A DNA stretch of 64,000 nt from Chloroflexota bacterium (GTDB taxonomy: Bacteria > Chloroflexota > UBA11872 > VXOZ01): assembly GCA_963662335.2 (NCBI GenBank), contig CAXXVD010000001.1, positions 128,001 to 192,000 of the forward strand. Direction: 5' to 3'. Positions 28,520-29,241 of this stretch are shown piece after piece. Under the pieces are notes generated by a model, which ran no database searches, had not been told where the DNA came from, and was given only the letters and a program-made list of their open reading frames with translations. Within the stretch, counting starts at the first letter, position 1; each line of letters opens with the position of its first letter. Made by a program: the position numbers and the translations under genes.

Positions 28520-28594
28520 GGGCGCAGGTTGCAAACCTACGCTACCGCTATTGCCGCCAGTACATTCGGGCGCAGGTTGCAAACCTACGCTACC
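28520..28594. repeat. Two tandem REP copies (family D)
   Basis: GGGCGCAGGTTGCAAACCTACGCTACC twice, 48-bp period; the same palindrome occurs inside MITE family 1. Confidence 0.75.
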
Positions 28595-28656
28595 GCTGTC
28601 ACGGCCTATCGATTTGAGCGCGTTGGACCACGGTCCGGCAGCGCGTGGCGCGCTGG

Positions 28657-29229
28657 CTAGGCGTCTTGCTCTTTGAGGTATTCGATAGCGCCGCGCACCA
28701 CGTCGAAGCGGCCCTCGCCGACCTTGGCCAAGCGCACGTCGCCCCGGCGGTCGATGAGGTAGAGGGTCGGCCAGGCGCGGTTGCCAAACGCCCGCCAAAT
28801 CTTGAAGTCGTTGTCGATGGCGACGGGATAGGGCACGCCGAGCCGATCAACGGCCTTGCGCACGTTTTCCACGACCTTCTCGTGGACGAACTCAGGCGTG
28901 TGGATGCTGAGCAGCGTGAAGCGGTCATCCGCGTAGGTGTTGTGAATATCCACCAGACCGGGGATGTCGTTGAGGCAGTTAATTCAGCCGTAGGTCCAGA
29001 AGCCGATCCCAACTGCCGACTTTCCCCGAAAACCCGCCAGCGTAAGCGGCTCCGAGTTGATCCACGTGGCCGAACTAATCTCCGGCGCTTTGCCGAGCCT
29101 CGGTAGACCGTCAAAGTGCCGTACTTCGCCGCCGCCGCTTTCCGTAAGCGACGACCCGCCGCACGCGCTCAGCCCAATTGCCGCTGCGCCGCCGGCCAGT
29201 CCGTAGAGCAGGTTTCGCCTTCGCATCAC
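28657..29229 (-). CDS. Thioredoxin-fold redoxin (DipZ C-terminal/TlpA-like) Tat lipoprotein, predicted selenoprotein (UxxC)
   Basis: ORFs 28984..29229 and 28657..28953 share a frame: GFWTYG-TGA-INCLNDIP..IHTPEF..AWPTLYLID..GEG; RR signal and lipobox LSAC. Confidence 0.85.
28948..28986 (-). promoter_or_regulatory. Candidate bacterial SECIS element
   Basis: After the UGA: ..GAC AUCC-CC-GGUCU-GG-U-GGAU hairpin with a GGUCU apical sequence starting 24 nt downstream. Confidence 0.6.
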
Positions 29230-29241
29230 CGGCCTCCTCTA

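Follow-up and report, generated by a model that had tools for sequence, protein, structure and literature searches.

A redoxin frame interrupted by a single UGA

The window analyzed here is a 64,000-nt stretch of DNA from an uncultured Chloroflexota bacterium (assembly GCA_963662335.2, contig CAXXVD010000001.1, positions 128,001 to 192,000), and positions given without a contig name refer to it. On its minus strand, directly downstream of leuS, lies a redoxin gene whose reading frame is broken by a TGA triplet; the gene, the TGA and a hairpin that follows it are all located on this strand. Judged from sequence comparison, window 29226..28657 is very probably a single gene encoding an extracytoplasmic, probably lipid-anchored thioredoxin-fold selenoprotein of about 189 residues, with UGA81 decoded as selenocysteine (Sec, U).

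Under translation table 11, the locus is called as two open reading frames (ORFs) that share one frame, 28984..29229 (81 amino acids) and 28657..28953 (98 amino acids). When TGA is translated as Sec, 29229..28657 yields a single uninterrupted protein of 190 residues with the motif FWTYG-U-INC. Between ATG 29226 (or GTG 29229) and the TAG stop, the frame is broken by the TGA at 28986-28984 only, which bears out the original prediction of two ORFs in one frame parted by this triplet alone. A six-frame search of 40 relatives detected an orthologue in all 16 same-genus genomes which, with the present one, gives 17 sequences of 76–81% identity. All 17 begin with M-[RKQ]-[RS]-R, whereas the residue preceding that Met varies, and ATG 29226 was therefore taken as the conserved start. 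The features of the locus are as follows:

28657..29226, minus strand: complete coding sequence of the predicted Sec-containing redoxin; 189 codons from the conserved ATG 29226, stop TAG at 28659-28657, alternative start GTG 29229
29234..29238, minus strand: ribosome-binding site GGAGG, read from the sequence, 7 nt (29233-29227) upstream of ATG 29226
29161..29226, minus strand: predicted signal peptide MRRRNLLYGLAGGAAAIGLSAC, with a twin-arginine-like RR-N-L-L and a lipobox L-S-A-C (Cys22)
28984..28986, minus strand: candidate Sec codon UGA, residue 81 counted from the ATG, first position of the UxxC motif U-I-N-C
28975..28977, minus strand: UGC, resolving Cys (residue 84) of UxxC; TGC in 17/17 orthologues, the column being Cys in 117/121 rows
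28948..28965, minus strand: hairpin AUCCCC-GGUCU-GG-U-GGAU of the bacterial selenocysteine insertion sequence (bSECIS) type; 6-bp stem, bulged U, 5-nt loop
29242..32016, minus strand: leuS, longest ORF 924 amino acids, directly upstream; Pfam LeuS editing, catalytic and anticodon-binding domains

The predicted tryptic peptide around residue 81 is SAVGIGFWTYG-U-INCLNDIPGLVDIHNTYADDR.

The read-through protein scored over the Pfam gathering cut-offs of AhpC-TSA (38.7 vs 26 bits), Redoxin (31.9 vs 26.6) and Thioredoxin_8 (31.7 vs 27). Among solved structures, its top match was a fragment of Mycobacterium tuberculosis DipZ (PDB 2hyx and 5cyy, 352 and 360 residues; E 7.7e-33), the match spanning query residues 42-184 and residues 51-196 of chain 2hyx_A; the thioredoxin-like domains of SOQ1 and NHLRC2 were the next solved matches. 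FWAYSCINC of DipZ corresponds column for column to FWTYG-U-INC, and ..AWPT.. aligns with ..YWPA.., indicating that the W-P loop is conserved; by analogy, its Pro may adopt the cis conformation. On these sequence grounds, the protein is of the same type as the DipZ thioredoxin-like domain, within the TlpA/redoxin group.

A MAFFT alignment with the 120 best database homologues revealed Cys in the column under U in every one of them, within the motif W-T-x-x-C-I-N-C. The TGA thus sits on the first, nucleophilic Cys of CxxC, exactly where the original prediction had placed it in a DipZ/TlpA-type FWTxxCxNC. A motif scan of 80 loci on genome contigs returned 71 with Cys, three with TGA (all members of the genus), one spurious hit and five left unresolved by the motif filter.

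A conserved hairpin downstream of the UGA

The hairpin AUCC-CC-GGUCU-GG-U-GGAU, which had been predicted to follow the TGA, is present at 28965-28948. It begins 18 nt after the UGA; with the 6 nt of its 5' arm added to this spacer, the loop begins 24 nt after the UGA. Sixteen of the 17 orthologues share all 18 nt of the hairpin, the remaining one differing in the loop only (AGUUU); the expected conservation of TGA (17/17) and hairpin in close relatives is thus upheld. Synonymous diversity summed over the six hairpin codons is 0.118, less than in any other of the 116 six-codon windows; the runner-up, an overlapping window, reaches 0.575, and only 12 of 100,000 random sets of six degenerate codons were as low.

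Comparison was then extended to all TGA-bearing homologues from the six-frame search, 62 in number: the 17 orthologues (group A), two sets of paralogues from the genus with FWTYT-U-PVC (group B, 16; group C, 13) and 16 proteins with DFWTFC-U-INC from other families of the class (group D). A hairpin lies at the same offset from the TGA in all 62 rows. At the closing position of the stem, 38 rows have A-U, 12 have C-G, 8 have G-C and 3 have U-A, and a single row is mismatched. In groups B and C, the stem ends read AUC...GAU in 21 rows and GUC...GAC in 8, and mixed forms are absent (0/29), meaning that in all 29 rows an Ile/Val codon and an Asp codon change in concert, the former at its first base and the latter at its third. 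Group D encodes a different peptide, LPQLRE, and keeps the hairpin at the same offset with compensatory changes.

In alignment A1, 99.5% of the 220 cells that make up the four outer pairs are base-paired; with the 3' partner slid by 1–3 columns as a control, pairing dropped to 58.6% or less. The covariation score of 0.397 (shuffle mean 0.135) was reached by none of 500 shuffles, a figure that is not a probability since the alignment rows are related. RNAalifold, unprompted, returned the same helix with one additional inner pair, which changes from C-G in groups A–C to G-C in group D. Of the 62 rows, 61 have a loop of AGUUU, AGUUG, AGUU or GGUCU(G), and the same 61 have G within the first two loop positions; the exception, L157, belongs to group D.

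The bSECIS model, as described in PMC13188914, has an apical loop of 3–9 nt on an upper stem of 4–16 bp, a G at the first or second loop position with G or U after it, 16–37 nt from UGA to apical loop, and a minimum free energy (MFE) of -7.5 kcal/mol or lower. The present hairpin lies within the first three limits, with a 5-nt GGUCU loop that opens with G, a 6-bp stem with one bulged U, and a UGA-to-loop distance of 24 nt.

Several observations speak against assigning it a SECIS function. In isolation it folds at -4.9 kcal/mol, short of the -7.5 of the model, and reaches -6.3 when enforced in a 63-nt context. It is absent from the single-sequence MFE fold of the mRNA, where its pair probabilities are about 0. 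Rfam returned four matches, all far below gathering scores and none of them a SECIS family. The stem is invariant within the 17 orthologues, so that the covariation signal is contributed by paralogues and more distant homologues, whose rows are related and not independent.

Two other folds that score better in this sequence were rejected because they are not conserved. The pairing of AUCCC with a downstream GGAUG is broken in the other 16 orthologues, which have GGACG or GGACA; for UGAAU/AUUCA plus CUGCC/GGUGG, inspection of A1 by eye found G-G and C-C oppositions in group D.

The low stability, the missing MFE fold and the conservation of the encoded peptide IPGLVD itself would all agree with a different origin of the hairpin, namely constraint on codons or amino acids, or an RNA role of another sort (pausing or stability, for example), with recoding dependent on other features. 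Against this stand synonymous sites that are frozen at the hairpin only, the coupling of Ile/Val first bases to Asp third bases, the persistence of the fold over an unrelated peptide in group D, and a loop G placed as the bSECIS model requires. We consider such an origin very unlikely and favor a SECIS function. An 18-nt hairpin of -4.9 kcal/mol with strong comparative evidence also lends itself to testing SECIS search models with an energy cut-off.

Probable selenocysteine decoding and related selenoproteins

The genome was searched for selA, selB, selC and selD, as the original prediction called for, and all are present: a tRNA-Sec at 67.8 bits, with anticodon tca according to ARAGORN, selA at 562 bits, selB at 381 and selD at 380, the four components being over their family cut-offs. 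TGA does not appear to be a general sense codon, because leuS ends at TGA and the selA and selB matches and the 924-amino-acid leuS frame contain no internal TGA; an alternative genetic code was rejected.

The identity of the inserted residue cannot be told from comparative data alone, which leaves room for read-through without Sec, whether by an alternative code (Trp or Gly) or by near-cognate suppression inserting Cys or Trp. The use of TGA as a stop, the complete Sec machinery and the conserved hairpin at the SECIS position all oppose this, as does the nature of the site, a redox Cys, where the exchange of Sec for Cys is the rule (PMC1088965). We regard read-through without Sec as highly improbable, and from the same body of evidence we infer actual Sec insertion at codon 81.

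The selD gene of this genome (contig C1:382996-383925) itself has one in-frame TGA (..ACAG-U-AGK..), corresponding to a Sec-containing SelD.

Were the TGA a genuine stop, the locus would have to be read as a pseudogene in decay or as two short ORFs with no relation to each other. Table-11 calling does give two ORFs, and public protein sets agree with it. In a length-matched database search, no full-length orthologue was found, the best match being 52% identical. A search with the C-terminal 108 residues returned 16 clusters of 84–98% identity, one of them the window's own and all exactly 98 amino acids long; two are named 'alkyl hydroperoxide reductase subunit AhpC' by their source. Yet in each of the 17 species this codon is the sole TGA, and the frame is free of further stops and of frameshifts. 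Pairwise Nei-Gojobori dN/dS over 136 pairs is 0.145 for the 40 codons upstream of the TGA and 0.127 for the 109 codons downstream, so both halves are under purifying selection as protein. Taken singly, neither half contains the whole thioredoxin fold, and the catalytic motif spans the triplet. A true stop is thus extremely improbable. The public fragments rather indicate that gene callers split this gene, as had been anticipated, and as a consequence the active-site half and the export signal are invisible to genome miners.

An assembly or sequencing error in place of TGC or TGT is a negligible possibility, given TGA in 17 independent assemblies and no difference at 28984-28986 in contigs (not raw reads) of four public runs from two studies. 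The TGA, whose confirmation in reads had been proposed, is thus present in public contigs, without TGC or TGT. Six runs were listed, none of them of RNA. The hairpin is likewise unchanged in these contigs, and in those of three of the four runs the codon that follows the TGA has a synonymous change, A>T at 28981. A run labelled as sponge metagenome contains a relative with 87 differences over 967 bases (about 91% identity) that keeps both TGA and hairpin.

Taken together, the conserved TGA, the Cys column, the machinery and the hairpin support the core of the original prediction, a DipZ/TlpA-type redoxin with Sec at the first Cys of CxxC.

The related selenoproteins were placed in an unrooted maximum-likelihood tree of 100 rows: 62 Sec forms, 10 Cys forms of the class and 28 database hits (every fourth of 120 hits, i.e., 30, of which two without the exact motif pattern were dropped). 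Groups A, B and C cluster together (support 100/99), surrounded by Cys homologues; the sequences of group D make up a clade of their own (100/100), with other Cys homologues around it. Read most simply, the tree implies that Cys changed to Sec once and the gene was then duplicated in the genus, group D being a second Sec lineage. Groups A and B are present in this genome, and group C is not.

The genome has two DsbD_TM/CcdA homologues (contigs C1:106641-107324 and C5:474387-474971). The first, a ccdA-like gene (DsbD_TM, 69.6 bits), lies directly upstream of the group B paralogue on the same strand. This paralogue (FWTYT-U-PVC, 48% identical) has an RR motif and the lipobox LAAC; to judge from its sequence, the pair would effectively be a split DipZ with Sec. 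The unit occupies C1:106641-108131, about 20 kb before the window.

Two further sets of frames were observed. Group D (L053 1459-3165, L054, L055 and L151-L163) consists of frames of about 520–830 amino acids with DFWTFC-U-INC. In L053, the sole example translated, NHL-type repeats follow, as judged by eye, giving an architecture like that of NHLRC2 and SOQ1. A SECIS-type hairpin is found at the same offset in 16/16 group D rows, most commonly as CUUCCGC-AGUU-GCGGGAG. Separately, a third redoxin-like frame of the genome, C5:322231-322620, contains a TGA in frame (MWASW-U-RC), followed 14 nt later by the strong hairpin GUUGCC-AGGUU-GGCAAC; by eye, its C-terminal tail is TPR-like.

We tentatively propose a broader picture, whose chances we would put slightly below even. 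The genus would have turned a DipZ-type thioredoxin-like module to Sec and then duplicated it, so that each genome has two or three lipid-anchored UxxC selenoproteins, one of them behind ccdA as a 'split DipZ', which form a selenium-dependent extracytoplasmic reducing pathway. The three paralogue groups would share one inherited SECIS hairpin, and an apparently separate, NHL-fused Sec lineage would occur in other families of the class.

Probable export, proposed function and relation to known systems

The lipobox GLSAC is found in 17/17 orthologues and the pattern RR-x-hydrophobic-hydrophobic in 16/17, comparable with signals of the twin-arginine translocation (Tat) pathway, whose motif is of the type S/T-R-R-x-F-L-K. 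Both tatC and lspA are present in the genome. Some findings disagree with an exported, lipid-anchored protein of DipZ type. One orthologue has R-S-R in place of R-R, and no Tat-signal profile matched at E <= 0.01 in Pfam and NCBIfam scans. lgt was not found in this 96%-complete assembly (TIGR00544, PF01790). Likewise, NCBIfam gave no family over its cut-off, with ResA at 46.8 vs 170 bits, TlpA at 18.7 vs 230 and StoA at 25.9 vs 210. Finally, no ccdA gene adjoins this redoxin gene.

The absence of lgt is probably an assembly gap, since 16/16 congeners have the gene; at 3.23 Mb, the genome is at the low end of its near-complete congeners (3.2–3.7 Mb). That the protein is an exported lipoprotein is, from its sequence, probable; Tat would be the presumable route and Cys22 the presumable site of lipidation. 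The Tat-exported lipoprotein of the original prediction is less firm than its selenoprotein core. The lipoprotein component agrees with the universal lipobox and lspA, tempered by the missing lgt, and the Tat component agrees with the RR motif and tatC, tempered by the lack of a profile match and the R-S-R orthologue.

We hypothesize the following mechanism. SelB and tRNA-Sec would decode UGA 81 as Sec, directed by the 18-nt hairpin that starts 18 nt downstream, and Sec would replace the nucleophilic first Cys of CxxC to give U-I-N-C. After export and lipidation of Cys22, the domain would serve as an extracytoplasmic reductant that draws its electrons from a membrane carrier of the CcdA type. 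Its envelope targets, in which it would reduce disulfides or selenenylsulfides, may include apocytochrome c, methionine sulfoxide reductases and peroxidases. By analogy with DipZ and the ResA/CcsX/TlpA group, a role as an extracytoplasmic thiol-disulfide reductant is likely; the electron donor and the substrates named here are conjectural. One Cys-homologue cluster of 58 members is fused to MsrB, which hints at methionine sulfoxide repair as one possible client.

Co-transcription with leuS had also been predicted, with the redoxin gene starting 13 nt after the leuS stop. The distance needs correction: the leuS stop, TGA 29244-29242, lies 12 nt before GTG 29229 and 15 nt before ATG 29226. The end of leuS consists of tandem in-frame stops, TGA then TAG. 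leuS is located upstream of the redoxin gene in 17/17 genomes, with a spacer of 12–15 nt here versus roughly 80–670 nt in the 16 congeners (estimated from tblastn end points). A promoter and terminator scan of the locus found no promoter-like site and one terminator-like site, on the plus strand, against 1.0 expected by chance. Co-transcription is accordingly plausible in this genome, where the gap is short and no promoter-like site was found. The first Pfam domain of the 924-amino-acid leuS ORF begins at residue 120, so the true leuS start may lie further downstream.

Between the redoxin gene and a convergent aminotransferase gene, two direct copies of an element of about 30 nt occupy window 28521-28550 and 28568-28597. 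The element holds the palindrome AGGTT-GCA-AACCT, has about 30 copies genome-wide (<=4 mismatches) and looks like a repetitive extragenic palindromic (REP) sequence; the depth of public contigs peaks at it.

In terms of novelty, this kind of selenoprotein is known, and what is new is a further well-supported example in uncultured Chloroflexota. PMC13188914 already catalogues UxxC redoxin and TlpA-like selenoproteins, and PMC13326102, describing BSepDB, reports Chloroflexota/Dehalococcoidia genomes with 46–49 selenoproteins. The terms 'DipZ' and 'NHL' do not occur in the main texts of three selenoprotein papers, these two among them. With the present protein, the UxxC redoxin selenoproteins gain a member that is extracytoplasmic and probably lipid-anchored, which suggests that the envelope thiol-disulfide chemistry of the lineage depends on selenium supply. 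None of these findings overturns current understanding.

Among known systems, the hairpin can be compared with the SECIS of Escherichia coli fdhF, which also lies just downstream of its UGA within coding sequence and likewise has a bulged U on the 3' side of its stem. The apical GGUCU is common to both, as the original prediction had stated, although its position after the UGA differs (+19..+23 in fdhF, +25..+29 in the present hairpin). The two stems are unrelated in sequence, the present one being shorter and weaker.

Among protein families, NCBIfam NF041054, the 'ResA-like WAxxUGC motif-containing protein', is also a ResA-like redoxin selenoprotein, but its motif is UGC rather than UxxC and the match reaches 15.8 bits against a cut-off of 300; our protein is not a member. 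The catalogued UxxC redoxin and TlpA-like selenoproteins share its fold superfamily, UxxC motif and Pfam families (PMC13188914 and PMC1088965), a likeness drawn from family descriptions. ResA, CcsX, TlpA and StoA, which PMC3781833 describes as membrane-tethered thioredoxin-fold reductants fed by CcdA or DsbD, appear among the weak NCBIfam and PDB matches; they differ in having Cys rather than Sec in CxxC, and the ResA, TlpA and StoA family scores are far under their cut-offs.

The closest comparison is DipZ, with which the protein shares the active site FW-x-Y-x-C-I-N-C, the HTPE-F/Y motif and the W-P loop. In full-length DipZ, the thioredoxin-like domain is fused to a CcdA-like membrane domain. 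Here, the redoxin domain stands alone, with only a signal peptide ahead of it and no fused CcdA-like membrane domain. The solved DipZ chains of 352 and 360 residues, versus 190 residues here, contain sequence absent from our protein, and DipZ has Cys where this protein is predicted to have Sec. According to PMC3781833, DipZ works outside the membrane in the CcdA/DipZ reducing pathway.

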